Shown here: positions 7,080 through 24,472 of the stretch, one piece after another | Layout of the letters: every line of letters begins with the position of its first letter | Position numbering within the stretch: position 1 is the stretch's first letter | DNA from: a virus | IMG/VR virus record: IMGVR_UViG_3300006100_000043 | Direction: 5' to 3' (one strand) | DNA: 32,301 nt | Notes under the pieces: model-generated | Database searches by the model: none | What the model was told of the DNA's origin: nothing | Seen by the model: the letters and a program-made list of their open reading frames with translations, nothing else | Position numbers and translations under genes: made by a program

Positions 7080-8092
7080 TGGCTACAATCCCAAAGAGAA
7101 TGAGTGAGCTGCTGGAAGAGCAGAAATATGCCAGTGGATTGGCAAGTGGTCTTAACGATTTTGCGCTTGGATCAGATGCGGTTGCAGCTGCTCAAGGTGG
7201 CCTAGACCCTGTATCTGACGTAGAAGCAGGAGCAGCAGATGTTGCTGCAGGTGCAGTAGACGTTGGTGAAGCAGCTGCTCCAGAGGTTGAATCCTTGGCA
7301 AGCAAGGCATGGAGTGGTATTAAAGGATTGTTTGGTGATGGCGGTGCTTCAACCACCGCAGATACAGCAACGACTACCGCAGATACAGCGTCTACAGCTG
7401 GTTCAGGTCTTTACGATGCAGCTGGTAAAGAAATTCCTTCAACATTAGGAAATTCTGCAGAAACTGGTACTGGTTCTACCGGTGGTAGCATGTGGAGCAA
7501 ACTCAAGGGACTTGGTCAAGCTGCTGGTGGTGGTGTAGCCGGTGGTCTTGCAGACAGAGTTAAGAATTACGTTTCAAATGGTAATAGCAGCTCATCAGTT
7601 CCTGCAACAATGGGGCCATACGGTGGAGCCGGTGGTGGTGGCGCTGCTGTACGCATTGGGCCTATGCTTGGTAGCAAGGAAGCCAACGCTGGCATGGAAC
7701 AACAGATTTTGCAACAATTGTCACAACAGTCAAAGCTTCTTGACATGGTTCTTGAAGTGTTGTGCGGATGTGGTCAGCCAACAGCAGGTAACTACAAGGG
7801 AATGCCACACTGTGTTCCAGGAACTGGCTGTGCAACCAACATTGCTTTCTCAAAATCAAATCCAACTGGTGAAAACTGCTGCAGTTGCGGCAACCCAGAT
7901 GCAGCGGGTGCATTCCAGGGTCAACCTATTTGTGCACCTGGTCAAGGTTGTAACGATCACTGGGAGCTTGGAAAGGGTCGCAAGTGGAACCCATTCATGG
8001 AATCTCCACAAGAGAAGATCCAAGATCACGACAATTGGGCTAGCCAGACCAATCACGGTGAAACAGAGATGCCAAAGACCACGTGGGAATAG
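7079..8092 (+). CDS. Gly/Ala/Thr-rich protein with duplicated Cys-knuckle C-terminus (337 aa)
   Basis: N-terminal 200 aa are low-complexity G/A/S/T. The C-terminus contains CGCGQP...HCVPGTGC and CCSCGNP...ICAPGQGC, a duplicated CxPGxGC module. Confidence 0.7.
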   Translation: MATIPKRMSELLEEQKYASGLASGLNDFALGSDAVAAAQGGLDPVSDVEAGAADVAAGAVDVGEAAAPEVESLASKAWSGIKGLFGDGGASTTADTATTTADTASTAGSGLYDAAGKEIPSTLGNSAETGTGSTGGSMWSKLKGLGQAAGGGVAGGLADRVKNYVSNGNSSSSVPATMGPYGGAGGGGAAVRIGPMLGSKEANAGMEQQILQQLSQQSKLLDMVLEVLCGCGQPTAGNYKGMPHCVPGTGCATNIAFSKSNPTGENCCSCGNPDAAGAFQGQPICAPGQGCNDHWELGKGRKWNPFMESPQEKIQDHDNWASQTNHGETEMPKTTWE

Positions 8093-8093
8093 C

Positions 8094-8987
8094 ATGAAGT
8101 ACGCAGAACTTGGACAGGGTAACCATTCAGACGATGATAGTCTAGAAGCCATTGAGAATCACGAAGAAGGTTTCGGTATCCCTGGTCAATCTGCTGTGGG
8201 CCACATTGGTTTTGTAAGAAGAGCTGACGTTGGCAACCAGGATGAAAACTCAACGGGTATAACAGCGCCAACAGGTCATCACACTATCAAATTAACAGAA
8301 GAGCCAGGAATTGTATCAAACGAAGGACTTAGCAGTGTTAGCCCAGGTTCTTTGTCACCACTTATCAATGGAGCACTAGGAAGCAATATGAATACAAGAA
8401 TTGCATACGTAATGGAGAATGGTGAGCCGTTCTGCAATCACTGTGAACGTAGTTTCGTTCCAGCTAATTTGACACGCATCGCATGCACTCATTGTGGTTG
8501 CGGTGCACCACAGGACGATCATGGTTTGGGTGAAAACAACTTCAGTCATGTCGAGGGTGATGTTAAAGAACACGTGCCAGCAGCTGATAAACCTTTCATC
8601 AAAGAAGAAACTAAGCTAAGCTTCGTTGACATGGCATTGCAGACATTCCAAAAGCAATCTAACGACAGTGAACTATACTACCGTGGTTACAACGATGCAC
8701 ACGCTGGCAAGCCACTCGATGAAGACCTCGCATTGTTGAGCGATGACTACTACAATGGTTATGATCAACACAAGTTCTACAACAAGACACCACAGCAAAG
8801 CACTGGTCAAAAGTTGTACGACCTTAAGCCAAACAGCAATGACATTCCACGTGGTGGGAACATGACACCTGGTGAAGCAGACCGCGGTCCACTTGAATTG
8901 ACTGATGGATTTAACCACGCTACTGCTTCGGTTAGACTTGCTTCTATCTTCCCCGTTGATGTAATTGAGAAGTTTTTTGAGGTATAA
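8094..8987 (+). CDS. Hypothetical protein (297 aa) with CxxC...CxxC zinc ribbon
   Basis: Real start taken as ATG 8094 (MKYAELGQG...), 1 nt after the upstream stop. Track ORF 7542..8987 extends upstream through the previous gene in another frame. Motif CNHCERSF...CTHCGCGAP. Confidence 0.65.
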   Translation: MKYAELGQGNHSDDDSLEAIENHEEGFGIPGQSAVGHIGFVRRADVGNQDENSTGITAPTGHHTIKLTEEPGIVSNEGLSSVSPGSLSPLINGALGSNMNTRIAYVMENGEPFCNHCERSFVPANLTRIACTHCGCGAPQDDHGLGENNFSHVEGDVKEHVPAADKPFIKEETKLSFVDMALQTFQKQSNDSELYYRGYNDAHAGKPLDEDLALLSDDYYNGYDQHKFYNKTPQQSTGQKLYDLKPNSNDIPRGGNMTPGEADRGPLELTDGFNHATASVRLASIFPVDVIEKFFEV

Positions 8988-11661: not shown

Positions 11662-12526
11662 GACAATAGTGACGAAACAACTGGCTGAAAAAGATCCAGC
11701 AACACACATTGTAATTCCAGATACCCAGGCCAAGGACGGTGTTCCAACAGATCACCTCACATGGATCGGTAACTATATCGTGGAAGAATTTCACAACCAA
11801 GATGTGAAGATCATCCACCTTGGTGACCACGCTGATATGCCAGCCCTTTCAATGTACGATAAGGGCAAGAAGAGCATGGAGGGTCGTCGTGTTAAAGCAG
11901 ACATTGAAGCTGCGAATGAACACTGGCGCATCCTCAATCAACCGTTATACGATTATAACGACAACAAGCGCAAGAGCAAACACGCTATCTGGAATCCAGA
12001 GCGTCATATCTTGCTCGGCAACCACGAAGATCGTATCAACAGAGCAACAGAAATGGATGCTCAGATCGATGGGTTGTTCAGCACCGATGATCTTGATTAC
12101 GCAAGAAGTGGCTGGAGAGTAAGCCCGTTTAAGAAAATTCTGTGGTTGGATGGAGTGGCTTACAGCCACTTTTTTTATAACCACATGACGGGTGTACCCT
12201 ATGGTGGCAATATCGATACGCGTCTTAAGACTATCGGCCACTCATTCACTATGGGTCATCAGCAGACTTTCCTTTATGGTATGCGATACGTCAACGACAG
12301 CAATGAGCCTTACTCACAGCATGGGCTTGTAGCTGGTGCTTGCTACTTGCATGACGAAGACTACAAGGGTCCGCAGGGTAATGCTCATTTCCGTGGAATC
12401 GTTGTAAAACATGGTGTTCAAAATGGCAGTTATGACATCCAGCAAATTTCTCTTGATTCTTTGTGCCGTAGATACGAAGGTATGGGCGTAGAACGGTTTA
12501 AAAAGCTCAAGTATCCGCATATGTAG
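11636..12526 (+). CDS. Calcineurin-like metallophosphoesterase (about 290 aa)
   Basis: Motifs in order: IVIPDTQ...DG (I), HLGDHADMP (II, GDxxD), LGNHEDR (III, GNHE), TMGHQQ (IV, GH), GACYLHDE (V). Alternative start GTG 11669 with AGGACA upstream would remove the 26-nt overlap with the previous ORF. Confidence 0.75.
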   Translation: MMRKTTTNRTIVTKQLAEKDPATHIVIPDTQAKDGVPTDHLTWIGNYIVEEFHNQDVKIIHLGDHADMPALSMYDKGKKSMEGRRVKADIEAANEHWRILNQPLYDYNDNKRKSKHAIWNPERHILLGNHEDRINRATEMDAQIDGLFSTDDLDYARSGWRVSPFKKILWLDGVAYSHFFYNHMTGVPYGGNIDTRLKTIGHSFTMGHQQTFLYGMRYVNDSNEPYSQHGLVAGACYLHDEDYKGPQGNAHFRGIVVKHGVQNGSYDIQQISLDSLCRRYEGMGVERFKKLKYPHM

Positions 12527-12529
12527 TAT

Positions 12530-13732
12530 ATGGATAAAAATAACGAACGCCAGAGGAAGAACTTTCGCTGTGTCTTTAATCCTTACGTGACTAAAGATAA
12601 CCGCGATGGCGTTATTCGTTCCATCATTTCTCAGTTTGAAGGTTATGAAGCTGAGCCTGAAGTCACACTACATGACGATGGTTTTATCATCACGCTTACC
12701 ACTGGTCCTGAATTATCTCCAACATTAATCAGAGATAAAATTCTGTGGAATCAATTCGTTGACAGCGTAACAGCTTCCGATGCTATCCGCAAGATCCAGA
12801 TCATACGTATCCCTAAGAATTCTGGTTTGATGGATTTTGGTGGTCGTGTGGAAGGACAAGGCAGTATTGGTGGTTTTGGTCCTGAAGTCGATCCTATTGT
12901 TGGCAATACTGGTGTGGATGAGAAACTCAACACGCCATTGAACTACAAGCCTAAGTATCAGATCGATGGAGATCCTAATGATACATTGGGACACCATGCC
13001 AGTGTTAGAAAATACGCTGACCCAACAGATCTTACTTCTCAAGACCAATCTTTTGTACACGGTCTTACTCCAGCTGATTTGACAAGTGATGCCAACAGGG
13101 TTGAAACTGGCCCTCAGGATCCATTGGAAACTGGTAATCACAAATCGTTGCCAAAGGTATTCGCTAGCTTTAAGCGTATTGCAATCGATACAGACGCTGG
13201 AAGTGCTTTTACTTTAAACAAGCCCAATGGGTTTCAAAGCGTTAATGATCCACCCAACCAAGGACCATTGCACCAACGTGCCACTCCAGCAACTGGTATT
13301 GGTGGTGGAGCCCCTATTAGCGGTGCTAGCTGGTATGTAACACAGCCTGGCAATGAGCAAGGAACCGAGCTTGGTGCTGAACGTAACAAGGATTACGATT
13401 TGAGCAGCTCATCAGCACCCCTTGGTGGGATTACTGCTTCGTTGTATGAAGGTCCTGCAGCTGAACAATACGAGAAGTCTATCAAAGACGAATACGGCGC
13501 AGAAACAGCTGAAGACCAAAATAAAGATCAGATCAAAAAGAACATCGTTTACGCATCTTCTGATGGAGACAGTGATACCGATGACGAACAAGGTATTAAA
13601 GCAGAATACGGTTCAACGCTAGATATGCTAGGTGTTGGAGACCACCCAATTGGTGGTGCCGCATATGGTTCTTTCTTTGGACTTAATGAAACATACGATT
13701 ATCAAGGCGATATAGATGAGTACAACCTATAA
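12530..13732 (+). CDS. Hypothetical protein (400 aa), acidic Ser/Asp-rich C-terminus
   Basis: Long ORF; no recognised motifs. Confidence 0.7.
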   Translation: MDKNNERQRKNFRCVFNPYVTKDNRDGVIRSIISQFEGYEAEPEVTLHDDGFIITLTTGPELSPTLIRDKILWNQFVDSVTASDAIRKIQIIRIPKNSGLMDFGGRVEGQGSIGGFGPEVDPIVGNTGVDEKLNTPLNYKPKYQIDGDPNDTLGHHASVRKYADPTDLTSQDQSFVHGLTPADLTSDANRVETGPQDPLETGNHKSLPKVFASFKRIAIDTDAGSAFTLNKPNGFQSVNDPPNQGPLHQRATPATGIGGGAPISGASWYVTQPGNEQGTELGAERNKDYDLSSSSAPLGGITASLYEGPAAEQYEKSIKDEYGAETAEDQNKDQIKKNIVYASSDGDSDTDDEQGIKAEYGSTLDMLGVGDHPIGGAAYGSFFGLNETYDYQGDIDEYNL

Positions 13733-14264
13733 GGTTTACGAAGCAGGTAAAGATCCGTCAAAGTACGTACCAGGAGATTTTATTCTGGTGTCGACCAAGG
13801 GAGTCCTTGCTAAGTTTATCCGTTTTGGTCAATTCATCCGTTATCACGGTAAAATGAAGCCCTTTGCTCACTGGAACCATGCTGCTATGGTTATCAGTGA
13901 GAATGGCGACATCGTTGAAGCTGTTGGTCGCGGTGTTGTAGTTAGCAACATTGGTGAGTACAAGAACGTAGAATATTACTACGTTTCTACTAAGCTTAAC
14001 AAGCAAAGCCGTGACCAAGCGGTAGCTGCTTGTAAGAGTTTCATTAAGGATAAGTATGGTTGGCTAACCATCTTGAGTATTGCTACGGAATTGGCAACTG
14101 GCATCAAGATGCAGTTCACCAATAGCAACACAATGATCTGTAGCGCCGTAGTAGCACAATCCCTATGGGCAGGTGGAGTCGTATTCGACCGCAACCCATA
14201 TCAAATGATGCCTGCTGATTTGGCAGCATCTTTCAACATTCTGACGGAATTGCCAAATACTTGA
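13716..14264 (+). CDS. Permuted papain-fold amidase of the YiiX/YaeF (peptidase C92) type; candidate endolysin/cell-wall hydrolase
   Basis: GDFILVST...HWNHAAMVI...VEAVGRGV...MICSAVVAQSLW...MMPADLAAS follows the YiiX order (GDIIF...SH.G..V..EAVG...YCSEVVW...SPQAVF). His precedes Cys (circular permutation). Confidence 0.7.
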   Translation: MSTTYKVYEAGKDPSKYVPGDFILVSTKGVLAKFIRFGQFIRYHGKMKPFAHWNHAAMVISENGDIVEAVGRGVVVSNIGEYKNVEYYYVSTKLNKQSRDQAVAACKSFIKDKYGWLTILSIATELATGIKMQFTNSNTMICSAVVAQSLWAGGVVFDRNPYQMMPADLAASFNILTELPNT

Positions 14265-14295
14265 TTTTTTGCATTTTATGCAATAAATTGAAAAT

Positions 14296-14463
14296 ATGCA
14301 AAAAGCTACAATTACCATCAGTTATGATGCCCGTGACCACCAGAGCGAAGAGCTCGCTAGTCAAGAGATCAGCGAAACTATCGCTGGCCTTCTCAACAGC
14401 TTGCGTACTCAAGTAAATGGCGTCCAGGTAACCGTGAAGTTCCAAAATAACAAGGAGAAATAA
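14296..14463 (+). CDS. Small hypothetical protein (55 aa) between amidase and holin-like genes
   Basis: ATG 14296. Translation MQKATITISYDARDHQSEELASQEISETIAGLLNSLRTQVNGVQVTVKFQNNKEK. The stop overlaps the AAGGAG ribosome-binding site of the next gene. Not in the track (under 60 aa). Confidence 0.4.
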   Translation: MQKATITISYDARDHQSEELASQEISETIAGLLNSLRTQVNGVQVTVKFQNNKEK

Positions 14464-14465
14464 TA

Positions 14466-14819
14466 ATGTCTAACCCATTGAACACAACAACAACTAGAGC
14501 TACAGGTCGTGCTTTTGTTGCTGCTATCGTTGGTGCTTTGCTTGCTTGGGGTGCAACCAAGTGGGGCAATCTTAACACTGGCACATTTGCAGCTTTGACA
14601 CCTGTTGCTTCTGGTCTGTATTACACAGCAGTTACTGCTCTTGAGAAGAAGTATCCTAACCTTGGTTGGTTGCTTGGTACGCTTCCTCAGCCCAAGGCTC
14701 CTACTGTGTTCCCTACACCAGAGCCCACACCTGCTCCAACACCAGCTCCAACTGCCGCAAAGGCTCCTGCTGCCAAGAAGACAGCTGCTGCAAAGAAGGC
14801 TGCTCCTAAGAAGAAGTAG
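14466..14819 (+). CDS. Holin-like two-TM membrane protein with Lys/Ala/Pro-rich histone-H1-like tail (117 aa)
   Basis: Strong RBS AAGGAGAAATAATA-ATG. Two hydrophobic helices (AFVAAIVGALLAWGATKW; FAALTPVASGLYYTAVTAL). C-terminal PTPEPTPAPTPAPTAAKAPAAKKTAAAKKAAPKKK. Confidence 0.55.
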   Translation: MSNPLNTTTTRATGRAFVAAIVGALLAWGATKWGNLNTGTFAALTPVASGLYYTAVTALEKKYPNLGWLLGTLPQPKAPTVFPTPEPTPAPTPAPTAAKAPAAKKTAAAKKAAPKKK

Positions 14820-14826
14820 TTCTTAA

Positions 14827-14899
14827 TCCCTGGTAGCTCAATTGGCAGAGCAACGCACTGTTAATGCGTGGGTTCCTGGTTCGAGTCCAGGCTGGGGAG
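14827..14899 (+). tRNA. tRNA-Asn (anticodon GTT)
   Basis: Manual cloverleaf. Acceptor tccctgg/ctgggga, D-arm gctc-aattggca-gagc, anticodon arm acgca-ctGTTaa-tgcgt, T-arm cctgg-ttcgagt-ccagg, discriminator G. No encoded CCA. Confidence 0.8.
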
Positions 14900-14904
14900 C
14901 TTTA

Positions 14905-14978
14905 GGTCTTGTAGCTCAGTTGGTTAGAGCACTTCCCTGTCACGGAAGGGGTCGTGGGTTCAAGTCCCATCAAGATCG
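14905..14978 (+). tRNA. tRNA-Asp (anticodon GTC), CCA encoded at 14979-14981
   Basis: Acceptor ggtcttg/caagatc, anticodon arm cttcc-ctGTCac-ggaag, T-loop ttcaagt, discriminator G followed by cca. Confidence 0.8.
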
Positions 14979-14982
14979 CCAT

Positions 14983-15053
14983 TGAGGGATGGTGTAAAGG
15001 CAGCACAAAAGACTTTGAATCTTTTAGTCTAGGTTCGATCCCTAGTCCCTCAG
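14983..15053 (+). tRNA. tRNA-Gln (anticodon TTG), CCA encoded at 15054-15056
   Basis: Acceptor tgaggga/tccctca, anticodon arm aaaga-ctTTGaa-tcttt, T-arm ctagg-ttcgatc-cctag, discriminator G then cca. 71 nt. Confidence 0.75.
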
Positions 15054-15057
15054 CCAT

Positions 15058-15130
15058 GGGACTGTAGCTCAGTGGTAAGAGCGGAAAGCTTATATCTTTC
15101 TGGCCGTAGGTTCAATTCCTACCAGTCCTA
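15058..15130 (+). tRNA. tRNA-Ile (anticodon TAT, reads AUA), CCA encoded at 15131-15133
   Basis: Acceptor gggactg/cagtcct (G1-U72), D-arm gctc-agtggtaa-gagc, anticodon arm gaaag-ctTATat-ctttc, T-arm gtagg-ttcaatt-cctac, discriminator A then cca. Confidence 0.7.
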
Positions 15131-15221
15131 CCATTTAAAACATGCTCTGAGTTATAGCAGTAATTAGGCAATATATGCCTATATTCAGCGTTCCTATTGG
15201 GACAATATAAGGAGTAACACG

Positions 15222-16643
15222 ATGACCTCGATGTTCGATTTTGACGATTCAGTAAACATTGCTTTTGATGCAAAGATTGCTGGTAAGAATCTCGTAACCG
15301 CTAAGCACGAATTGCTTACAAAGACCGGTGAGTTCCTTTTCTTGGCCCACAGCGATCACGAGCTTGCTAGCCGCATGCAAATGGTAGAGAAGGACATCGA
15401 GAAGGTTGCCCACCGTCGTCTTGCTTCAGTTAGCGACTCTAAGGCTAAGCTTGTCCGCGCTGTATACGATGAATGGCAGATTCGTCACGCTCGTTGTGAA
15501 ATGTGCAAGCTTGCATGGGGTTTGAACCCCATCTCTGACCTTGGTCAAGCGATTACTGACATTGGTGGCGCTGCTGGTAAGGCAACCAGATCCGTTGTTA
15601 ACGACCTGTCTGGCGCTGCTGGCGCTGTTGGTCGTGGTGTACGTGATCTTGGCCACGATGCTGCAGGACTTGGTAGAAACCTTTCTGGCGATGCTAAGAC
15701 TGTTGCTCGTGGTGTTGGTGAAGCTGCCGGTACCGCTGTTAATGGTCTCGAGAACGTTGGTAAGGGTGCAATTGACATTGCAAAGAAGGCTCCTGGCGTT
15801 CTCGACAATGTTGCCCGTGGTGTTGGCAATGCAATTGGTCAAGGTGCTCACGACACCGCAGGTGCTTTTGATACTGCTAGACACGATACTGCAGGTGCTG
15901 CTGACGCAGCAGGCCGTGGTATCTCACGTGGATTCGACGTAGCTAGACACGACACCGCAGGTGCTTTTGATACTGCTAGACACGATACTGCAGGTGCTGC
16001 TGACGCAGCAGGCAGAGCTATTGGTCAAGGTGCTAACGATGTTGCACGTGGATTTGATGTAGTGCGTCACGATACTGCAGGTGCTGCTGACGCAGCAGGC
16101 CGTGGTATTAGCAATGATGCTAAGTCCGTTGCTCGTGGTTTGGGCCAGGGTGCTGGTGCTGCTGTAAATGCCGGTGAAAGTTTCATGGGCGATGTAGCTC
16201 GTGGATTCGACGTAGCTAGACACGATACTGCAGGTGCTGCTGACGCAGCAGGCAGAGCTATTGGTCAAGGTGCTAGAGATGTTGCAGGCGTTGCTAAGAC
16301 TGTCGGTACCGATGCTGTTAAGGGTGTAGCTGCTCCGTTCGCCGGGGCTGTTAGCGCCGTTGGATCAATGGGAAGCCAATTTATTCAGGGCTTTGAGAGC
16401 AAGGAAGACAACGACAACAAGAGAGGACCTAGCACATCAACTGGTGGTCCTGGCGGATCAGGTGCACCTGCTGCTGGATCTGCAGGTACTATGCGATCGA
16501 CTCCTGCTTCTCAAGCGATTAACAGTGCAAAAGCTAAGTTGACACCTGACACTGATCACGACAATGACACAGGCGATGCAAACGAAGCCAACAAGACAAT
16601 TGGCGACAAGAGAACATCGTACGATAGAAATTTTCCCTGGTAA
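15222..16643 (+). CDS. Gly/Ala-rich tandem-repeat protein (473 aa), probably abundant virion-associated
   Basis: Strong RBS TAAGGAGTAACACG-ATG. The central 250 aa are degenerate 11-residue repeats with at least six copies of HDTAGA(A/F)D(A/T)A(G/R) and four of RGFDV(A/V)R. C-terminal Gly/Ser/Asp-rich tail. Confidence 0.8.
   Translation: MTSMFDFDDSVNIAFDAKIAGKNLVTAKHELLTKTGEFLFLAHSDHELASRMQMVEKDIEKVAHRRLASVSDSKAKLVRAVYDEWQIRHARCEMCKLAWGLNPISDLGQAITDIGGAAGKATRSVVNDLSGAAGAVGRGVRDLGHDAAGLGRNLSGDAKTVARGVGEAAGTAVNGLENVGKGAIDIAKKAPGVLDNVARGVGNAIGQGAHDTAGAFDTARHDTAGAADAAGRGISRGFDVARHDTAGAFDTARHDTAGAADAAGRAIGQGANDVARGFDVVRHDTAGAADAAGRGISNDAKSVARGLGQGAGAAVNAGESFMGDVARGFDVARHDTAGAADAAGRAIGQGARDVAGVAKTVGTDAVKGVAAPFAGAVSAVGSMGSQFIQGFESKEDNDNKRGPSTSTGGPGGSGAPAAGSAGTMRSTPASQAINSAKAKLTPDTDHDNDTGDANEANKTIGDKRTSYDRNFPW
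15849..16274 (+). repeat. Intragenic tandem DNA repeats (66-bp perfect duplicate with 99-bp period, plus two further 33-35-bp copies)
   Basis: 15849-15914 is identical to 15948-16013. Core gacacgatactgcaggtgctgctgacgcagcaggc recurs at ~15880, ~15979, ~16068 and ~16219. gcagagctattggtcaaggtgct occurs at 16011-16034 and 16251-16274. Confidence 0.85.
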
Positions 16644-16668
16644 CCACAAACCCAGGGTTTAGTGGTAC
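16644..16668 (+). terminator. Weak stem-loop after repeat-protein stop (ccctgg...ccaggg / aaacc-cag-ggttt) with only a 3-T tail
   Basis: Inverted repeats directly after TAA 16641-16643; poor T-run, so intrinsic-terminator status is doubtful. Confidence 0.2.
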
Positions 16669-16699
16669 AACTGCGAAAATTAAAAATGCTTTCAATCTA

Positions 16700-17392
16700 T
16701 TGAGAAATGCTTCTGGCACAACGCCAGCGCCTGGTTCTCTTGATTACGTCGATTCATTGTTACACATCACTTCACCTGCAGCAACTACTCAGACTAAAAC
16801 TCCAGCAGCAGCTGGATCGGATGAGGGTGAACTTAGCCCTTTGAAAAAAGAAGAGCTTCAGAAGGTAATCAACCAAGACCGTAGAATGCACATCAATGTT
16901 CCGCAGAGTGCAATTGATGAAGTTAACGCACCAGCAGATACCCCTCAAGAAGATCAGACTGAAAAAGCAGTTAAGTCTCGTCAAAAAGGAGAAGCAGAGA
17001 CTGCCAGGGCCAATGAATCTAAGGGTCCTATTAGACAGCCTACCACTCCAACGCCTGGTACAAAAACACCGACTAACGTGGCACCAGTTGCACCAGTTTC
17101 CAATAAGCCAGTAAAGCCTGTCGTTGCACCAATTCCAGCAGGCGTGGTAAAGACACCGATCGTTCCAGCTCAAACATCTCCTGTTAAGCCTGTTGTGCCG
17201 CAAGGCACACCAACAGGTTCTCCTGGTAAAACCGGTCCTGGCAAGGATCTCGGTTTTAAGTCTGTGCCAGCAACAACATCTCCTACTGTAAACATGAATC
17301 CTAAGCCCAAGGCTACTGCCCCAACTACATCAGGTACTGGAAGTAGTGCGGAGCAGGCCATTCAAAATGGCGCCGCGTTCCTAGGTGTATAA
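16700..17392 (+). CDS. Pro/Thr/Val-rich low-complexity protein (230 aa); start codon uncertain (TTG)
   Basis: Long open frame with no in-frame ATG until codon 62; the track start is TTG 16700. Motifs TPTPGTKTPT, PVKPVVAPIPAGVVKTPIVPAQTSPVKPVVP. Confidence 0.5.
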   Translation: MRNASGTTPAPGSLDYVDSLLHITSPAATTQTKTPAAAGSDEGELSPLKKEELQKVINQDRRMHINVPQSAIDEVNAPADTPQEDQTEKAVKSRQKGEAETARANESKGPIRQPTTPTPGTKTPTNVAPVAPVSNKPVKPVVAPIPAGVVKTPIVPAQTSPVKPVVPQGTPTGSPGKTGPGKDLGFKSVPATTSPTVNMNPKPKATAPTTSGTGSSAEQAIQNGAAFLGV

Positions 17393-17402
17393 TAAATAGA
17401 TT

Positions 17403-20400
17403 ATGTACAATTCAAAGAACAACCAAAAAGTTGCAGCAGAGCAAGATACATATGCATTTGCCAAATCATTAGACGATGCTGCTCATGGTGGTGATCTCGG
17501 TAAAAGAATTGGTGTTACCAATATTTCCACGCAAGCTGGCTTGTGGGACCGTTCCAAGAAGCTGTGGAGCGAAGGTGTCTACCCGAAAGCATCGGAACTA
17601 ACACCAGGTACATTTGCCACACCATTCGCTGGCCTTCAAGAACAATTGTCTAGTATGCCTGCGGTTACAAAAGGTGGCAACCAAGGTGAACGTGTAATTG
17701 GTGGTTTTAAAAACGCTGATACTGGCCACTCATATGCAATGAGAATGTTCTACCAACCAGATGGTGACAACCACCGTCTTAAGGTATCTGTGCATTTGCC
17801 AGAAAGCGGAGTAAACGCTCACGGCAATCATATCTATGACGTTGAATCAGGTAAGTGGCACCTTCCCGGCGAATCTCACGATAGCCCAGAAGCAATTTCT
17901 TCTTACAACCCCATGGAAGTAATGCAAAGCGCACCAGAAGACTTTGCTAATGCAACTCAATGGACTAAATTCAACACGCCATCTCACTCAGATGGTTTTT
18001 GCAAATCTTGCAAGCGTTTCCCAAGATTTCTTAGCCGCATGCTTAAGATTATGCGACCAGAGAATTGTACAGCTTGTGGAATGCGTGGTGGTGCTCCTGA
18101 GTACCCATGGGAACCTGGTACGTTCGTTGATTTAAACTCAGAAAATGGAACTGGTGTTCAGACCAGTGCTTTTTCTCAATACATGGGGCCAATCTGTCGT
18201 AACAAAAAATGCATTAGTTACAATAAGTCTATCGCTTCCGAGCCAGCGTTTGTAACTCCTGATTACCAGGTAGTTTACCCCGGTGCCGTCGGTGCACAAG
18301 GCAAGAAAATTTACCAGTTAACACCAGCCAAAGTGTCTGAGTTCAGAGATCTTAGAGCAGAGAGAGAATCTAAGAGAACAGAAATTTCTCGGCGGATTAA
18401 CGATGCCAGACTCCTTGGTGACTTGGGCGAAAATGGTGATTACCACGCAGCAAGAGATGAACAGTCTTCAAATGAATACATGATTTCATCATTAGCAGAA
18501 ATGCTTGCAAACCATGAAATCGTTGATAGCTACAAGCCTGATCACAAGCACCTAGAAGAACCAGGTCAGACGACTGCACCATCAAGAATGGTATATGATA
18601 ATCCCATTATCAAGGAAGCCGTAGAGCGTGGCGGTGCAAAAGCAATTAGCTTGCCAGCTGCAAGTTTAGAATGCGATCATGAAGATTGCCCTGACACAGT
18701 TCTTGATCAAACAACTGGAAGAATTAATACAAGTAGACCAATTAGAACTCATGTCGATAAGTTCCCAAAGCTCGGTATTTTGCCATGCCAACACTGTCGT
18801 CGCGGCGCTGCAAGTGGTGTCAAAACTGTAACCACCGAAGATGGATACACAAGATGTGATCCTTCAGAGTACGGTGCCAACACATGCGCACCATTGCCGC
18901 AAAGAATTGCTGATGATCGTGCAGATGATTACTTTAGCTGGTTTGATCCAGACCCCGTAGACAAATACCCTGTAATTAAAAAAGATGCTGGAACGGGTAT
19001 GGGAGTTCTTTTTCAACGTACTGAAGACGAGCAGGATCCAAACAAGCCCAATGGTACATACCCTGGTACTCAAAGAATTTTCATGAAAAACCCATCCAGT
19101 GGTAGAGATCCAGTCGGCAACGGCTATGAGAGCCCCAGAGATTACTTCAAGTTTGGTAAGAAGTCCCCATGGACACGTTTCGGCATGTTCGGACGCAAAA
19201 TCATGGATCGACTGCCCTTGGTTGATCATGAAAGTGACGAAGCAAAGGAATACGCTACAAAGTACAATTTGGCTGATCAGGTAAGAACAGAGATGGGTAG
19301 TGCCAATCTTAGTGAAGACGATATCAACCGTAATGCCAACATTGAAGCAGCCAGCAAGATCAATGGAAAAATTTTAAGTGAACATCGCTCCAAGGCGCAG
19401 GGTTCATTGGCTGAAGAACGCATTACACCTGAAGACTTCGAAGAACTCTCATCAACACCGGTAATTGGTAGCTTAGATAGTATATCAGACACTGATCCTG
19501 TGCTTACGACTTCTATTAATCCTTTTAGATTGCCAGAAGATATTGATGAACGCATAAAGCCACAAACAGCAGTCGATGAACTGGGTCGCGAAGTTGCTCC
19601 TGGTGAGGATCTGAGCCAGGAAGACTATGACCTTGCACGTGGTTACGAGGCACGAAGCATCCCTACGGTATCAAGTATTGTTTCGGATCTTGCTCAGGGA
19701 ACAGGTACATCGCACGATCCAATTCGCTTTAGAGAAAAGCGCGGTTCTCGAAGAATTGTTGCTAATGCATCTGGTTTTGTTTATCCAAAACAAGTTCCTA
19801 TGAGTCTCGATAGTGGTGTTGATTGGGATGATCTTTACGGTGCTCGTCCTGATCTTGTCATACCTGATACACCAGATCAGGAAGAAGTTTTCCAAACTCA
19901 GAAAGCAGTAACACCTGGAGAATCATTGGCAATTGCTCAGAATGAAGTCACAGACTGTCCTGAATGCAAAACCATGTCGATCCTTAACAATGTGCGAGGA
20001 ATGGTGCCACAATCAGCGGTATACGTATCACCGCACTGCCCAACGTCACAATGCCCAGGTGGAGAAGAATGCCACAGTGATATGACCAACAGAAGCCCTC
20101 ACTGTCACGGCTGCAAGGATCCAAAAATTTGTGTTGGCAGAAAGAGAAAAGTTTGGCGCAATGTAGATGCAGTCTGCTCAACCTGTGATAATAACGGGTT
20201 TGTAAGCCCTTCAAAGGTTGCTGACAGGGTTATTCCTGCAATTGGAGAAGGAGCACAGCGTAGAGATATTGGTCACGAAGATATCGTTGGAAATCCAACC
20301 AATGCAATGGATGTGTTTAATGATAGAATCGGTGAATCAGCTCTCGGTGATCTCGAAAGCCATGGTATTGAAACCACTGGTCTTAGCGTTGATGCGATCA

Positions 20401-20972
20401 ACCGTGCTAGAGAAATTGCTAACTGGCAGCGTCAAAAGGACAGAGAACAAGGTCTTATCGTCCATGATTTTGAACTCGAAAACGAAGCTTCAGATCTAAA
20501 GAAGCTTGGGCCTGCGGCATACTTGCAAGCAGTGGAAAATGGCGTCTATGATGCTGATCAACCACTTATTGCTAGTCTAGAACAAGACGTACAAGATATG
20601 GTAACCGAACCACCCCGTGAGGGATTGACAAATCTGCAGTTTGATTCACCAGCTGCTCTTGAACGCGTTAGAAGATTGCGTGAAGATGCACCAAGAGAGA
20701 AGCTTGTAAAGCGTGATGAAAAAGACGATTCTCCATATGTCAGCACAACAGAAGTTAATAATATCCCTGTGGCGCGTATAGAACATGATGAGAAATGCAC
20801 GAAATGTAACCGCGGAATTATTATACCTGAGGTAGTTGGTCCAGAAGAAATGAGAAGAATCAACAACGTAATTGGTCAGGCTACTGCTCAGATTAGAAGA
20901 ACAGTCCCAGCAGAACAGCAGCCTGCGGCAATCAACCAGATGATAGCTGACCAGATGAAGTGTAGAGGATAG
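17403..20972 (+). CDS. Very large hypothetical protein (1189 aa) with multiple Cys-knuckle clusters
   Basis: Uninterrupted 3.57-kb ORF. Cys clusters include CKSCKRF...CTACGMRGG, CDHEDC, CQHCRRG, CPECKT, CPTSQCPGGEECH...HCHGCKDPKIC...CSTCDNNG and CTKCNRG. No Walker A or polymerase motifs found. Confidence 0.8.
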   Translation: MYNSKNNQKVAAEQDTYAFAKSLDDAAHGGDLGKRIGVTNISTQAGLWDRSKKLWSEGVYPKASELTPGTFATPFAGLQEQLSSMPAVTKGGNQGERVIGGFKNADTGHSYAMRMFYQPDGDNHRLKVSVHLPESGVNAHGNHIYDVESGKWHLPGESHDSPEAISSYNPMEVMQSAPEDFANATQWTKFNTPSHSDGFCKSCKRFPRFLSRMLKIMRPENCTACGMRGGAPEYPWEPGTFVDLNSENGTGVQTSAFSQYMGPICRNKKCISYNKSIASEPAFVTPDYQVVYPGAVGAQGKKIYQLTPAKVSEFRDLRAERESKRTEISRRINDARLLGDLGENGDYHAARDEQSSNEYMISSLAEMLANHEIVDSYKPDHKHLEEPGQTTAPSRMVYDNPIIKEAVERGGAKAISLPAASLECDHEDCPDTVLDQTTGRINTSRPIRTHVDKFPKLGILPCQHCRRGAASGVKTVTTEDGYTRCDPSEYGANTCAPLPQRIADDRADDYFSWFDPDPVDKYPVIKKDAGTGMGVLFQRTEDEQDPNKPNGTYPGTQRIFMKNPSSGRDPVGNGYESPRDYFKFGKKSPWTRFGMFGRKIMDRLPLVDHESDEAKEYATKYNLADQVRTEMGSANLSEDDINRNANIEAASKINGKILSEHRSKAQGSLAEERITPEDFEELSSTPVIGSLDSISDTDPVLTTSINPFRLPEDIDERIKPQTAVDELGREVAPGEDLSQEDYDLARGYEARSIPTVSSIVSDLAQGTGTSHDPIRFREKRGSRRIVANASGFVYPKQVPMSLDSGVDWDDLYGARPDLVIPDTPDQEEVFQTQKAVTPGESLAIAQNEVTDCPECKTMSILNNVRGMVPQSAVYVSPHCPTSQCPGGEECHSDMTNRSPHCHGCKDPKICVGRKRKVWRNVDAVCSTCDNNGFVSPSKVADRVIPAIGEGAQRRDIGHEDIVGNPTNAMDVFNDRIGESALGDLESHGIETTGLSVDAINRAREIANWQRQKDREQGLIVHDFELENEASDLKKLGPAAYLQAVENGVYDADQPLIASLEQDVQDMVTEPPREGLTNLQFDSPAALERVRRLREDAPREKLVKRDEKDDSPYVSTTEVNNIPVARIEHDEKCTKCNRGIIIPEVVGPEEMRRINNVIGQATAQIRRTVPAEQQPAAINQMIADQMKCRG

Positions 20973-20973
20973 C

Positions 20974-21729
20974 ATGGCGGGTAAGAACGTTATTTTTAGA
21001 ATTGGCATCTCTCAGAACCCTTGCGAAAGAGCAATCGATCGTGCCGAGCTGTCAGACGAAGCATACTTGCGCAGACACGGTGTAAGCAAGGCGGCTGACA
21101 ACGTATGCGATGGATTGGATCACACTGATCCTAATCGACAGGAAATTTTCCTAAGAGACCGATTGGATGCTGCCATGTTGACTGACCCTCGAGCAGTTGA
21201 CACTAGACAGCACAATCCTCAAGCAGAAATTGTCAATATCCTCGCAGGTAAATCACCCGTCCTCAGCTGCGCAAATCACGCACAGTCATACAAGGACAAT
21301 GGGAACAAGGTTACTTTGATTACTCAGTTTTTCCGTCCAAGATTAAACCCAGGTGAATCGCCATCACTACAACGTTTGTTCGTTAAGCGTTATAACTACA
21401 GAAGACAGCGTGCAGAAGATATTGCAAAGCGCGAACGCGAATTCGATGCTCAAAACAATGCTGCAGAAGCTGCCAACCCGATCAATTCAACACCAAGTAA
21501 TTGGTCTTCCGATAAGTTCACCCCAGTGTGGACAAACAATACAGAACTCCCAGAAGAGACACCAGAAGAAACTCCAACCACTGATTACGGCATTGCAAAT
21601 ATTGTAAACCAGTTCCAGGCTGCTCTCTACGGATCAGAGATGGTAGATGGTCCAACCGACACCAATGCCAGTAGCCATGTAGCGGCTCCAAGCACGGGAA
21701 CACCACCACAACCACCACAGGTATTCTAA
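20974..21729 (+). CDS. Hypothetical protein (251 aa)
   Basis: ATG 1 nt after the upstream TAG; C-terminal Pro-rich PPQPPQ. Confidence 0.7.
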   Translation: MAGKNVIFRIGISQNPCERAIDRAELSDEAYLRRHGVSKAADNVCDGLDHTDPNRQEIFLRDRLDAAMLTDPRAVDTRQHNPQAEIVNILAGKSPVLSCANHAQSYKDNGNKVTLITQFFRPRLNPGESPSLQRLFVKRYNYRRQRAEDIAKREREFDAQNNAAEAANPINSTPSNWSSDKFTPVWTNNTELPEETPEETPTTDYGIANIVNQFQAALYGSEMVDGPTDTNASSHVAAPSTGTPPQPPQVF

Positions 21730-21730
21730 C

Positions 21731-24472
21731 ATGCGTACATTCAGATTCGTTAAAGATGCAGAAAGCAAGAAAAAGAATAGCGGCGGCAAAAAGAAGAAGA
21801 CTGAGCCAGTAGCTATTGACTGGGGTAGCCTTGGTGTACCAGAAAGCGGCGGCTCCGATTGGCACGTCGACGCAGAACAACAGGAAGCCATCGAGCAACA
21901 CCGTGTAGGCATTGAAGAATACAAGGCACGTCGTCGTCAATTCCTTGAAAGAAGAAGACAGACTCGTCAAGCATATGGTATTCTGCACGGAGATCCACGA
22001 GCACTGTTGAAGTGGATGGCAGAAGGCGGTGTTGGCAGTATGCCAGACGAAGCCGCTGCTTCTATTTCTCCTTATCACAGATCAATGCCGCAGTTCCGCG
22101 AAAGAAGAGACAGTTTGGGTAGGCTCAAGATCGAGCGCGTAAAAGAACTTCTGGAGAGTCCTGGATCCGGCTACACACAACACGTTATTCCAGTTGAATC
22201 ATATGCGCACAATGAACATTGGAAGCGCATTGCTCCAAAGGGTATGAAGGTATTCATTAAGAACGATAAGTTGCCGAGTTCAGGCATTAAAGTGCGTTCA
22301 TTGGAATCAAGCCCCATTCTTGAAGCACGACGTTTAGCAGATATGAAGAAAGCAGTTACGCAGCTTCGCCAAGAAACTGGTGGGTATGAAGTTATCGACT
22401 CATTAAATCCCAACCACCCTCTCAACATCTTTGAGGCTGAGGGTCCTGAAGCAATGTTCGCAAGAATTTTTACTGATCGCCATCAGTTCGCTAGACCAAC
22501 ATCTGAGAAAGTAATTGAGAGCGCAGTCGGTGAATCTGGAGAGCCGCAAGAAGTTAAGGTAGACCCTCTTTCTTTGACTAGTATTTGTACTTGTGGTTCT
22601 GCAGAAGATCGACACGTAACACCAGAAGAAGCGACAGAGCATCATGCTTTGACAGGTGAACACCTTGAGATTCACCCATTTTCACCACAGTACATCATGG
22701 AAAGAGACGGAACACCAACGCCTGGCAGAGTGTTCCGTGCTGGTAATTCTATGCTATTGCGGGCTAAGACAACTCCAAAGCGTGGTGACAACGCTCTTGA
22801 AGTCCCTGCGACTGAGTGGAAGCGTATGGACGATGGCATGGGTTATCGTCTTATGCCGCTCGTTAAATTGGGTGAAACAGCTGAGCGTATTCGACGCATC
22901 TTAATTAAGGGTACAGGTCGTGATAAAGACGGTAGAGAAGTCATGCCCTTTATTAAGCCTGATTCTGACAATTGGACCACATGTAAGGGTTCTGAGTTAA
23001 CAGGTCCTTGCTATGGAGGAAAGCTTAAGCCACGTCGTAGTACCAGCGCAATTCCCTGTGACTGCTGTGAGCCCGATGTTGTTAACAGAGATCCTGAAAC
23101 TGGTAATCCAATATCGGTAGGTCTCGGAAACGGTAGAATCCGTATCCTGGATGATGCTCACAAGCCTTTGTGCCCAACTTGCAATGGACAAGGATTCAAG
23201 CTTAAGGGCAGCAAGTCAGAATCTGAAAAGATTGATTGCGAAACATGCGCTGGCAAAGGGACAGACCCAGCAGCAGATAGTAGTGTTGGAATCCCTTGCA
23301 CGAATTGTGGCACATCGAACGGTGCAATCCTTACGACCGATGATAACCGTTGCCCAATCTGCAAAGGAACTGGTAAGGGAATTGAGAAGGTAAAGCCAAG
23401 AGCGCAGCAGCAGGAAGTTTTCCTAAGACAGGATAGCGTTGTCGAAGGTAACCCCGTGGTGTTGGAAGAATTCTCTGCTAAGGGTCATGGGAATTCAGGA
23501 GTAGATGCGTGGAAAGCGCACGCTCATCCGCAGTGCACACGTTGTGGCGGAGATGATGAATATCAGACTGACTCGGGTCTTCCTTGCAATTGCAGAATAG
23601 CGTCTTTCGACGACAAGAAATCTTTGGTTGCGCCTAGTAACATGAGATTCGTTACACCAGAAGGTGTCAGCGTGCCGAATGGGTTGTTCCAGTTCGCGAT
23701 GACCAAAGCATATCCAGAAGAAGGTACGAACCCTCACAGATTCGTCAATGACTTTGAAACCATTGACCCATCCACCGATCTACCATATGACATTGAATTG
23801 CCATCTGACGATCCTGATCGTGAAACCGAAAACGTTGTTCGATACCAGAATTCCAGTGGCGGACGAATCGATGCTAGAAACTACTTGGGACACTATGAAA
23901 ATGGTATCAACATCCCAGAATCTGCTATGAAATGGTTGCAAGAGAGAAGCGCACAGCACCGTTCAAGTAGAAACGCAAAATTTTGCGCAGCAAATGCTGA
24001 GCTCGAGGATATCTATTCGTTGCTTACTAAGCATATCGCAGAATATCCTATCAACATACCTGGTCTAAAGGTCGAGAAGCCAAAGGCTCAAACGTTGGGT
24101 AACGGCAGTATAAGTGGTCCTTCTTTGCACAAGAGTGTGCAAGAAGCAATTCCTCAGATTGCTCAGTCTCTGCAAAGCGCGGGAGTTAACCCAGAAAGCG
24201 TTGAAATGGCACCGGTATTAGAAGCAGCTTCTAACCTACAATTTGCACGCGATGCTGGTCACCCAGAGGATGAACACTGGGATAACTATAATCAAGCTTT
24301 GAGTCGTGCTGTTGGAGGAATTTTCCAGAACCAGAGACAAGATGTTCCAGAAGGAAGTTACTTGACCCCTAGCAAGATTCGTTCTATGCTAAAGGGACTG
24401 CCGCAACCACTCGATACTCAGCCGGATGCACAATCACAGATTCCAGAGCAGACAGCAGATACCAATGCCTGA
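21731..24472 (+). CDS. Large hypothetical protein (913 aa) containing a DnaJ-type CR zinc-finger domain (CxxCxGxG x4)
   Basis: CPTCNGQG, CETCAGKG, CTNCGTSNG and CPICKGTGKG lie within 70 aa (nt 23171-23380). Lys-rich N-terminus KKKNSGGKKKKT. Additional Cys cluster TCKGSELTGPCYGG...CDCCEPD. Confidence 0.8.
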   Translation: MRTFRFVKDAESKKKNSGGKKKKTEPVAIDWGSLGVPESGGSDWHVDAEQQEAIEQHRVGIEEYKARRRQFLERRRQTRQAYGILHGDPRALLKWMAEGGVGSMPDEAAASISPYHRSMPQFRERRDSLGRLKIERVKELLESPGSGYTQHVIPVESYAHNEHWKRIAPKGMKVFIKNDKLPSSGIKVRSLESSPILEARRLADMKKAVTQLRQETGGYEVIDSLNPNHPLNIFEAEGPEAMFARIFTDRHQFARPTSEKVIESAVGESGEPQEVKVDPLSLTSICTCGSAEDRHVTPEEATEHHALTGEHLEIHPFSPQYIMERDGTPTPGRVFRAGNSMLLRAKTTPKRGDNALEVPATEWKRMDDGMGYRLMPLVKLGETAERIRRILIKGTGRDKDGREVMPFIKPDSDNWTTCKGSELTGPCYGGKLKPRRSTSAIPCDCCEPDVVNRDPETGNPISVGLGNGRIRILDDAHKPLCPTCNGQGFKLKGSKSESEKIDCETCAGKGTDPAADSSVGIPCTNCGTSNGAILTTDDNRCPICKGTGKGIEKVKPRAQQQEVFLRQDSVVEGNPVVLEEFSAKGHGNSGVDAWKAHAHPQCTRCGGDDEYQTDSGLPCNCRIASFDDKKSLVAPSNMRFVTPEGVSVPNGLFQFAMTKAYPEEGTNPHRFVNDFETIDPSTDLPYDIELPSDDPDRETENVVRYQNSSGGRIDARNYLGHYENGINIPESAMKWLQERSAQHRSSRNAKFCAANAELEDIYSLLTKHIAEYPINIPGLKVEKPKAQTLGNGSISGPSLHKSVQEAIPQIAQSLQSAGVNPESVEMAPVLEAASNLQFARDAGHPEDEHWDNYNQALSRAVGGIFQNQRQDVPEGSYLTPSKIRSMLKGLPQPLDTQPDAQSQIPEQTADTNA

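Follow-up and report, generated by a model that had tools for sequence, protein, structure and literature searches.

What does a phage gain by packing four tRNA genes head to tail on one strand into 307 nt, and why does the last of them carry the anticodon TAT? This question is raised by the IMG/VR virus record IMGVR_UViG_3300006100_000043, a stretch of 32,301 nucleotides (the window, by which we mean the whole stretch of DNA that was analysed), where genes for tRNA-Asn(GTT), tRNA-Asp(GTC), tRNA-Gln(TTG) and tRNA-Ile(TAT) follow one another. They are real, canonical phage tRNA genes, and an earlier note made from the sequence described the cluster correctly. As to its role, we consider it probable, with the reservations given below, that it is a phage-encoded, T4-like tRNA operon which supplements host decoding and in which AUA would be read independently of the lysidine synthetase TilS.

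The tRNA genes were called with ARAGORN and with the Rfam covariance model RF00005 (gathering score 29 bits) over the whole 32.3-kb window. ARAGORN found exactly four tRNAs, all on the plus strand and contiguous, and each was matched by the full covariance model (positions 1-71 of 71) without a single non-canonical pair being flagged (E-values 1e-11 to 4e-14):

14827-14899, plus strand: tRNA-Asn (ARAGORN span 14827-14900), anticodon GTT at 14860-14862, U1-A72, discriminator G73, no encoded CCA (G14899 is followed by CTTTA at 14900-14904), 63.5 bits
14905-14981, plus strand: tRNA-Asp, anticodon GTC at 14939-14941, G73, C38, CCA at 14979-14981, spacer T14982, 68.9 bits
14983-15056, plus strand: tRNA-Gln, anticodon TTG at 15015-15017, U1-A72, G73, CCA at 15054-15056, spacer T15057, 63.0 bits
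15058-15133, plus strand: tRNA-Ile, anticodon TAT at 15091-15093, G1.U72 wobble, A73, A37, U38, CCA at 15131-15133, 72.2 bits

Full-length scores so far above the cutoff (all at least 63 bits) exclude chance matching, and the Rfam scan of the window found no other RNA families besides the four tRNAs. ARAGORN, RF00005 and our reading of the sequence agree on all four isotypes and anticodons, thus bearing out the assignments of the earlier note, including the TAT of the fourth gene. The spacers, which had been put at 3-5 nt, are 5, 4 and 4 nt when counted from the discriminator to the next tRNA; counted from the 3′ ends they are 5, 1 and 1 nt, the last two being a single T after the encoded CCA. 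As had also been stated, three of the four genes (Asp, Gln and Ile) encode CCA, and tRNA-Asn does not. L140, an independent assembly from another sample (loci collected for comparison bear L numbers), has the cluster in identical form, and its four tRNAs receive the same Rfam scores.

The anticodon loop of the tRNA-Ile, located at 15089-15095, reads C32 U33 U34 A35 U36 A37 U38, i.e., it is a 7-nt loop with T34-A35-T36 after U33, followed by A37. Position 34 (15091) is T and not the C of the CAU anticodon that characterises the lysidine-type tRNA-Ile2. Judged by its sequence, the tRNA would therefore not be a TilS-dependent tRNA-Ile2, though it would resemble the latter in reading AUA. The earlier note called a genomic TAT tRNA-Ile uncommon in bacteria, and this agrees with the literature, where nine tilS-less species and a few redundant cases are given (PMC3575796).

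To place this tRNA among its relatives, loci were first anchored on the upstream gene for a 182-aa protein. A second anchor was a repeat protein encoded downstream, whose ~100 N-terminal aa are conserved; it was used instead of a 1189-aa downstream gene that is too divergent to serve as an anchor. The comparison set held 40 distinct islands, 29 of them complete. In the terminal tRNA slot, 15 of the 40 islands have Ile-TAT, 10 have a CAT tRNA, one has both and 14 have neither. When compared with E. coli over positions 8-48, the relatives' CAT tRNAs match ileX at 36-38 and metT at 31-33 of 41 positions, and their six best E. coli hits among the matches listed are all annotated as tRNA-Ile; by this comparison, for which the reference tRNAs were those of E. 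coli only, they appear to be of the tRNA-Ile2 (lysidine) type and not tRNA-Met. The TAT and CAT forms share one slot and stand together in only one of the 40 islands; we infer that they may be functionally equivalent as AUA decoders.

The TAT tRNA of the window and the CAT tRNAs have a common acceptor stem type (GGGACUG vs. AGGACUG) and are alike in the whole D-arm. Moreover, the 5′ half of the window tRNA-Ile was found in six cellular tRNAs, five of which are CAT tRNAs with ileX-like T-arms and one a TAT tRNA from a Saccharibacteria metagenome-assembled genome (MAG). Taken together, these likenesses indicate that the body of the window tRNA is of the Ile2 type and combined with T34. We considered whether a resident CAT gene had simply mutated from C to T at position 34 and rejected this, as the two kinds of tRNA also differ in the anticodon stem, position 38, variable loop and T stem: the A/U-rich anticodon stem of the window tRNA is GAAAG/CUUUC vs. 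GGGGA/UCCCU in the CAT tRNAs, and position 38 is U vs. A. The anticodon arm of the window tRNA-Ile, AAAGCTTATATCTTT, is also found on unrelated acceptor stems in L078, L083 and L106, which suggests, at the level of sequence, that the arm was either exchanged as a module or selected convergently. In the Ile-TAT of L078, positions 8-48 are identical to those of the window, and the acceptor and T stems differ yet still pair.

The same features bear on the idea that the tRNA-Ile(TAT) is decaying or mis-assigned, i.e., that it is a mutated tRNA-Ile2(CAT) pseudogene or is charged with another amino acid. The determinants of the E. coli isoleucyl-tRNA synthetase (IleRS) include C4-G69 and C29-G41, where the window tRNA has A4-U69 and A29-U41. 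Along with the G1.U72 wobble, the U38 in place of the usual A38, the A/U-rich anticodon stem and a minimum-free-energy fold of the naked sequence that is not a cloverleaf, these pairs would suit such an idea. However, this gene has the highest Rfam score of the four with no non-canonical pairs, it recurs unchanged in the independent sample (L140), its anticodon arm is kept on other acceptor stems with compensatory changes (window vs. L078), and TAT genes occupy 15 of the 40 distinct islands. We regard decay or mischarging as very improbable.

Cellular tRNAs of this kind are known. The UAU tRNAs-Ile of Mycoplasma mobile, Bifidobacterium, Neorickettsia, Lactobacillus and a B. subtilis tilS suppressor (PMC3575796, PMC3919564) likewise have T34-A35-T36 and A37, and lysidine should not be needed for their reading of AUA. 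According to the model of PMC3575796, tRNA-Ile(UAU) genes arise from tRNA-Ile(CAT) genes, and the window tRNA likewise has an Ile2-type body; it differs from the cellular UAU tRNAs in that its whole anticodon arm, beyond position 34, departs from the CAT homologues. Another difference is that in M. mobile the Arg865 IleRS and an AUG-discriminating ribosome co-evolved, whereas the window tRNA is phage-borne and cannot co-evolve with IleRS or the ribosome. An unmodified U34 reads AUA; its reading of AUG is weak in B. subtilis and ready on the ribosomes of E. coli (PMC3919564, PMC3575796). An IleRS with Arg at the wobble-contact site charges UAU tRNA well, and the eukaryote-type IleRS probably does too, as in the tilS-less Bifidobacterium (PMC3575796); among bacteria, IleRS2 has a wide distribution (bioRxiv 10.64898/2026.02.03.703510).

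If the cluster works as a T4-like operon, the four tRNAs would be transcribed as one precursor, the 5′ cuts would be made by the host RNase P, and the single-T trailers after the encoded CCA of tRNA-Asp, tRNA-Gln and tRNA-Ile would be trimmed by 3′ exonucleases. The tRNA-Asn would be cut endonucleolytically after G73 and receive CCA from the host CCA-adding enzyme. Host synthetases would charge the tRNAs, U1-A72 of tRNA-Asn and tRNA-Gln being compatible with the indirect GatCAB route, and the decoding capacity thus added would serve Asn (53 per 1000 codons), Asp (67), Gln (45, chiefly CAA) and the rare AUA (3.4). With its UAU anticodon, the tRNA-Ile would read AUA independently of the host TilS, probably at some risk of AUG reading, and would require a host IleRS that accepts U34, either of the IleRS2 (eukaryote-like) type or an Arg variant. 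Actinobacteria typically carry IleRS2. In this way the UAU decoder would free the phage from the host TilS and tie it to hosts with a U34-tolerant IleRS.

The T4 cluster (Gln-Leu-Gly-Pro-Ser-Thr-Ile, segB, Arg) resembles that of the window in being compact and head to tail with spacers of a few nucleotides, and both hold tRNA-Gln(TTG) and an AUA-decoding tRNA-Ile. In T4, too, some of the tRNA genes encode CCA and others do not, and T4 uses the host RNase P, 3′ trimming and CCA addition. Its homing endonuclease gene segB, which lies beside tRNA-Ile and reportedly drives preferential inheritance of the T4 tRNA region, is the closest analogue of the HNH-linked turnover in the window's relatives described below. 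The differences are that the T4 tRNA-Ile gene is CAT (ARAGORN) and thus lysidine/TilS-dependent, whereas that of the window is TAT; that the T4 endonuclease is of the GIY-YIG type, whereas HNH is found in the relatives and none in the window; and that Asn and Asp, present in the window, are both missing in T4.

The earlier note's statement that phages carry AUA decoders is supported by T4 and by the prophages of Latilactobacillus curvatus, where CAU tRNAs were found in 7/10 and a UAU tRNA in 1/10 (PMC10688831); in the latter, these mobile-element AUA decoders were interpreted as supplementing a minor codon, and both forms occur at one locus in the window's relatives too. Unlike there, where ATA reaches ~16% of Ile codons vs. 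4% in the host, the window phage has 7% ATA. Thus phage tRNA clusters and TilS-independent tRNA-Ile(UAU) are both already known, with precedents in the prophage UAU and the T4 CAU tRNAs.

If the tRNAs serve decoding, codon usage should bear on it. Codons were counted in 31 genes of the window (9862 codons), where ATA makes up 34 of 482 Ile codons (7%, 3.4 per 1000), CAA 54% of Gln codons, and Asn, Asp and Gln 5.3%, 6.7% and 4.5% of residues. The genes for the portal and the repeat protein and the gene at 28420-29184 are probably highly expressed late virion genes. None of their 73 Ile codons is ATA, vs. 34 of 409 in the other genes (p=0.005), and CAA accounts for 29% of their Gln codons vs. 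58% in the others (p=2e-5), with 7 of 42 in the portal alone. Upstream and downstream of the cluster, the ATA share is 8.0% vs. 6.2% (p=0.48) and the CAA share 67% vs. 44% (p=2e-6). These probable virion genes, which are also the likely highly expressed ones, therefore avoid the codons of the Ile and Gln tRNAs, so that these tRNAs would mainly aid less optimised genes. This is the opposite of what the earlier note had emphasised, namely that the set may point to the codons limiting late-gene translation, and this proposal was not borne out.

Comparisons among relatives, which are not phylogenetically independent and cover only a part of each genome, gave a mixed picture. Over the 29 complete islands, CAA use is higher where tRNA-Gln(TTG) is present (0.71 vs. 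0.54, p=0.009), only four islands being without this tRNA. The codon argument of the earlier note is thus supported in part. The median G+C content at third codon positions (GC3) is 0.255 in CAT-type phages vs. 0.365 in TAT-type phages (p=1e-4), a difference confounded by relatedness; it may fit the two forms serving different host groups.

Several points weigh against the cluster being a decoding supplement with TilS-independent AUA reading. AUA is rare in the window phage and missing from the probable virion genes. Over the 29 complete islands, AUA usage did not differ significantly with the presence of a decoder (median 0.214 with vs. 0.105 without, p=0.24), the effect after GC3 control being 0.04 +/- 0.035. 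Three relatives (L170, L191 and L189) use 30-37% AUA with no decoder in the island; a missed non-canonical decoder was looked for in them, and none was found. As Asn and Asp have a single isoacceptor each, compensation of codon choice is no explanation for their tRNAs, and only amino-acid demand could be. A bacterial-type IleRS, that of E. coli, charges UAU tRNA ~360-fold worse than LAU tRNA (PMC3575796). Finally, a sigma-70 promoter and terminator scan gave no better results than shuffled sequence.

The surroundings of the cluster are shared by its relatives: the tRNAs lie between the same two flanking genes in the 40 distinct relatives. In the window, the features concerned are the following:

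13716-14264, plus strand: anchor gene for the 182-aa protein, PF05708 (Peptidase_C92) 21.7 bits vs. cutoff 27, phrog_1128 E 5.6e-17 (PHROG name unrelated)
14466-14819, plus strand: left border gene, 117 aa, one moderately hydrophobic segment and a Pro/Ala/Lys-rich tail, PHROG 10742 (function unknown) E 1.6e-5
15134-15221, plus strand: leader from tRNA-Ile to the repeat-protein gene, with junction TTTAAAAC at 15134-15141, hairpin 1 at 15165-15181, TTCAGCG at 15184-15190 (TGTCCAGCG in relatives), hairpin 2 at 15190-15203 and AAGGAG at 15209-15214
15222-16643, plus strand: right border repeat-protein gene, 473 aa, N-terminal ~100 aa conserved and ending in CxxC, C-terminus hypervariable, of low complexity and Ala/Gly/Asp-rich with 33-nt and 87-nt repeats

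The recurring order of tRNAs is Asp/Asn/(Ser-GCT)/Gln/(Tyr)/terminal tRNA (the AUA decoder), with 2-7 tRNAs per island. Summed over the collected loci, the isotypes are Gln 34, Asp 33, Asn 28, Ile-TAT 18, CAT 13, Thr-TGT 10, Tyr 9, Ser-GCT 8 and His 3. A tRNA-Ser with the unusual anticodon ACT (A34) was called by ARAGORN between Asn and Gln in three relatives (L036 465-; L127/L180; L066/L075). Complete islands are 901-7569 nt long, and that of the window, with 961 nt, is the third shortest. In relatives, 0.6-6 kb of cargo is lodged between the tRNAs, including genes for an HNH endonuclease, methyltransferase, cytidylyltransferase, NAD-epimerase, RGP-type glycosyltransferase, 2OG-Fe(II) oxygenase, zinc-dependent dehydrogenase and PfkB kinase; the window has none, and among the versions of this hypervariable accessory island its cluster is the most compact one and free of cargo. 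The sugar-nucleotide/glycosylation-type cargo between tRNAs is located as follows:

L097: 7174-8921
L106: 7241-11115
L109: 7213-11505
L085: 7126-12300
L089: 3767-6748

The tRNA genes themselves are also replaced. The window and L083 are 98.5% identical over tRNA-Asp and the first 24 nt of tRNA-Gln, at which point L083 has an 811-nt insertion (within 7308-8168) comprising an HNH ORF (open reading frame) and a different, complete tRNA-Gln; after it, positions 49-74 of the window-type tRNA-Gln follow, positions 25-48 being lost. The same split of tRNA-Gln is seen in L095 (7205-). The HNH ORF between Asp and Gln in L083 and L095 matches PF01844 with 21.9 bits vs. a cutoff of 21.4, whereas no homing endonuclease gene is present in or beside the window cluster. 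Intact copies of the window-type tRNA-Gln stand in the window and L109-type loci, and orphan 5′ halves of this gene are found in L095, L078 (278), L079 (5282) and L121-L125. Likewise, in L078 (518-600) and L106 (12017-12060) the live Ile-TAT is separated from the ACCA|TTTAAAAC junction by 3′ fragments of other tRNAs (a CCGGG-acceptor type and the 3′ half of a CAT-type tRNA); their sequences mark them as probable relics of earlier slot occupants. When compared with the window copies, tRNA-Asp is the best conserved, with up to 97% identity, while the next-best Ile-TAT is 83% identical and the rest at most 70%, which is consistent with a fast turnover of tRNAs. The cluster was also considered as an attP site or integration remnant, and this was rejected: the genes are complete, no integrase lies nearby and there are no prophage relatives.

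Another idea is that the tRNAs persist mainly as a processing and recombination scaffold, i.e., as RNase P/Z sites at which the repeat-protein mRNA is parted from the transcript upstream and given its 5′ end, and as conserved anchors for an exchange of cargo driven by homing endonucleases, decoding being secondary. The terminal tRNA always ends 70-170 nt upstream of the repeat-protein gene, the ...ACCA|TTTAAAAC junction is conserved and the leader structured, 0.6-6 kb of cargo sits between the relatives' tRNAs, the HNH cassette splits tRNA-Gln in L083 and L095, and tRNA fragments persist at the junction. The leader itself is conserved and carries the AAGGAG ribosome-binding site of the repeat-protein gene, and an alignment fold gave some compensatory changes among relatives in both hairpins. 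The ribosome-binding site and the conserved leader are all that speaks for the high expression which the earlier note ascribed to the repeat-protein gene. Yet all four tRNAs of the window keep canonical cloverleaves, identity-relevant nucleotides and intact anticodon loops (63-72 bits), which is beyond the needs of a processing signal, and the same few isotypes recur despite sequence replacement, thus indicating selection on decoding identity. We therefore find a mere scaffold improbable. The TGTCCAGCG motif was tried as a general promoter and dismissed, as it is not repeated elsewhere in the window.

The turnover also bears on a counter-defence role, in which phage tRNAs would replace host tRNAs cut or depleted by anticodon nucleases or tRNA-targeting immunity, and the swapping of alleles and of the Ile anticodon arm would reflect escape from nucleases and not codon demand. 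Colicin E5-type enzymes act on tRNAs with GUN anticodons (Asn, Asp, Tyr and His), and the tRNAs for these very amino acids (Asp 33, Asn 28, Tyr 9, His 3) dominate the relatives' islands. Such a role, with colicin E5-type enzymes named, was proposed for the cluster C1 mycobacteriophages in PMC10264068, where Ser(GCU) is noted as a nuclease-safe serine tRNA; Ser(GCT) recurs in the relatives. Phage tRNAs are also described to evade retron effectors (PMC11555353). The weak coupling of decoders to AUA usage and the very fast turnover of alleles suit an arms race better than codon supply, and the UAU arm with its U38 and A/U-rich stem recurs on unrelated tRNA bodies. On the other hand, the loops of tRNA-Asn (CUGUUAA) and tRNA-Asp (CUGUCAC) look canonical, PADLOC recognised no defence or anti-defence gene among the neighbouring genes, and CAA usage tracks the presence of tRNA-Gln. 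On balance, counter-defence seems to us rather unlikely as the explanation, and a T4-like decoding supplement remains the reading that we prefer.

The terminal slot holds a further kind of tRNA. In five relatives, ARAGORN called a 79-nt "Ile-TAT" which is below the Rfam tRNA gathering threshold:

L113 4360-4438; L097 9279-9357; L089 7079-7157; L112 7262-7340; L023 2-80: non-canonical 79-nt tRNA(UAU), same slot

These molecules have a D stem of 6-7 bp, no nucleotide 26, an anticodon stem of 6 bp, a variable loop of 4 nt, C1-G72, A73 and an encoded CCA. When five distinct sequences were aligned, pairing held in 98.4% of cells, and changes on both sides were seen in 13 of the 25 pairs, slid controls being all far lower. 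The data clearly show that these are real structured RNAs in the slot of the window tRNA-Ile. Their best Rfam match is tRNA-Sec with 28.8 bits (cutoff 47), and the L083-type tRNA just meets the RF00005 cutoff with 30.1 bits; the window Ile-TAT is a canonical member of the slot's TAT set. Our tentative proposal, to which we give a low probability, is that the last slot of the island is a contested AUA-decoding site, which may be held by CAU (lysidine-dependent), canonical UAU or non-canonical 79-nt UAU tRNAs or stand empty, where relics remain and HNH cassettes bring replacement alleles. What drives the exchange would then be compatibility with the host TilS/IleRS or nucleases acting on tRNA-Ile2, and not codon frequency, and with the 79-nt form a new structural class would be added to the phage elongator tRNAs.

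The interest of the locus comes from this family context, i.e., CAU, UAU, non-canonical or no tRNA at one slot, HNH-mediated replacement of tRNA-Gln and relic fragments. The window cluster represents a clean reference allele of a natural experiment at one syntenic slot in close relatives. With hosts identified, the family could separate codon supply, host TilS/IleRS compatibility and anti-tRNA immunity as governors of phage tRNA content, and could show how a UAU tRNA-Ile works when co-evolution with the synthetase and the ribosome is impossible.

The genes before the cluster had been labelled lysis genes in the earlier note. This label is plausible, and the evidence behind it is weak: the Peptidase_C92 match of the 182-aa protein stays under the cutoff, and the 117-aa protein is weakly hydrophobic (best 19-residue hydropathy 1.39). 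The former is possibly a papain-like (C92/NlpC-P60-type) amidase, and calling the latter holin-like is a guess. For the putative amidase, no PDB sequence match was found, and its single-sequence AlphaFold model (pLDDT 31) was unusable. The sample with an identical amidase encodes a repeat protein of 440 aa (L140 4507-5829), vs. 473 aa in the window, and a repeat-protein paralogue with PAPK-rich and TGGG-rich repeats is encoded in L081 (5670-7661).

As for the phage itself, the long ORFs of the window are all on the plus strand, its GC content is ~0.46, and few of its proteins match PHROGs or Pfam. The portal, a 785-aa protein encoded at 29397-31754, shares 40% identity, over 74% of its length, with portals of cluster C (Bxz1/Cali-type) mycobacteriophages, and 226 of the 228 records matching it are phages of Actinobacteria. 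We found 77 related loci in IMG/VR on contigs of up to 133 kb, and homologues of a Dps-like gene sit on contigs of up to 137 kb. The window thus appears to be part of a ~100-137 kb uncultivated freshwater phage from a family linked by its portal to cluster C mycobacteriophages, and an actinobacterial host is suggested by the portal alone. No relative of the portal was found in 185,579 bacterial and archaeal genomes, which leaves no prophage or co-binning clue to the host. A WhiB tblastn search against the collected loci found nothing, and a scan of genomes with the tRNA 5′-half pattern returned only bacteria of the candidate phyla radiation (CPR) and a Bdellovibrionales MAG, hits that give no clue to the host. 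When 12000-18000 was compared with cultured phages by megablast, there were no matches, and the cultured-phage tRNAs nearest to those of the window are at most 80% identical and have other anticodons.

By portal, the cluster C1 mycobacteriophages Bxz1 and Cali, which are tRNA-rich myoviruses, are the closest cultured relatives. In Cali (L144 31289-38704), tRNA genes for Ser-GCT, Leu-CAG, Leu-GAG and Leu-CAA lie ~4 kb upstream of the portal, with a 1237-aa gene in between. The window has its tRNAs, large ORFs and portal in a similar arrangement, though homology to the first 50 kb of Cali is detected for the portal only. A difference is that C1 phages have ~33 tRNAs (PMC10264068) vs. 2-7 in the islands of the window's family.

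Several other genes of the window deserve mention. The Dps/ferritin-like gene at 10448-10978 matches PF00210 with 67 bits. Its homologues at E<=1e-10 number 1905, the best 120 of which are all from metagenome sources, and it appears to be family-wide in these phages. At 7079-8987, two long plus-strand ORFs overlap in different frames (7079-8092 and 7542-8987); the boundaries are uncertain, and the second gene probably starts near 8094. The region 17403-26681 holds three very large ORFs of 1189, 913 and 751 aa, rich in CxxC zinc-ribbon-like motifs. Apart from a GreA/GreB N-terminal domain (52 bits) at residues 315-373 of the 1189-aa ORF and a DnaJ CXXCXGXG motif that is weakly matched in the 913-aa ORF, they have no homologues beyond the relatives, where they evolve fast, with 32-40% identity.

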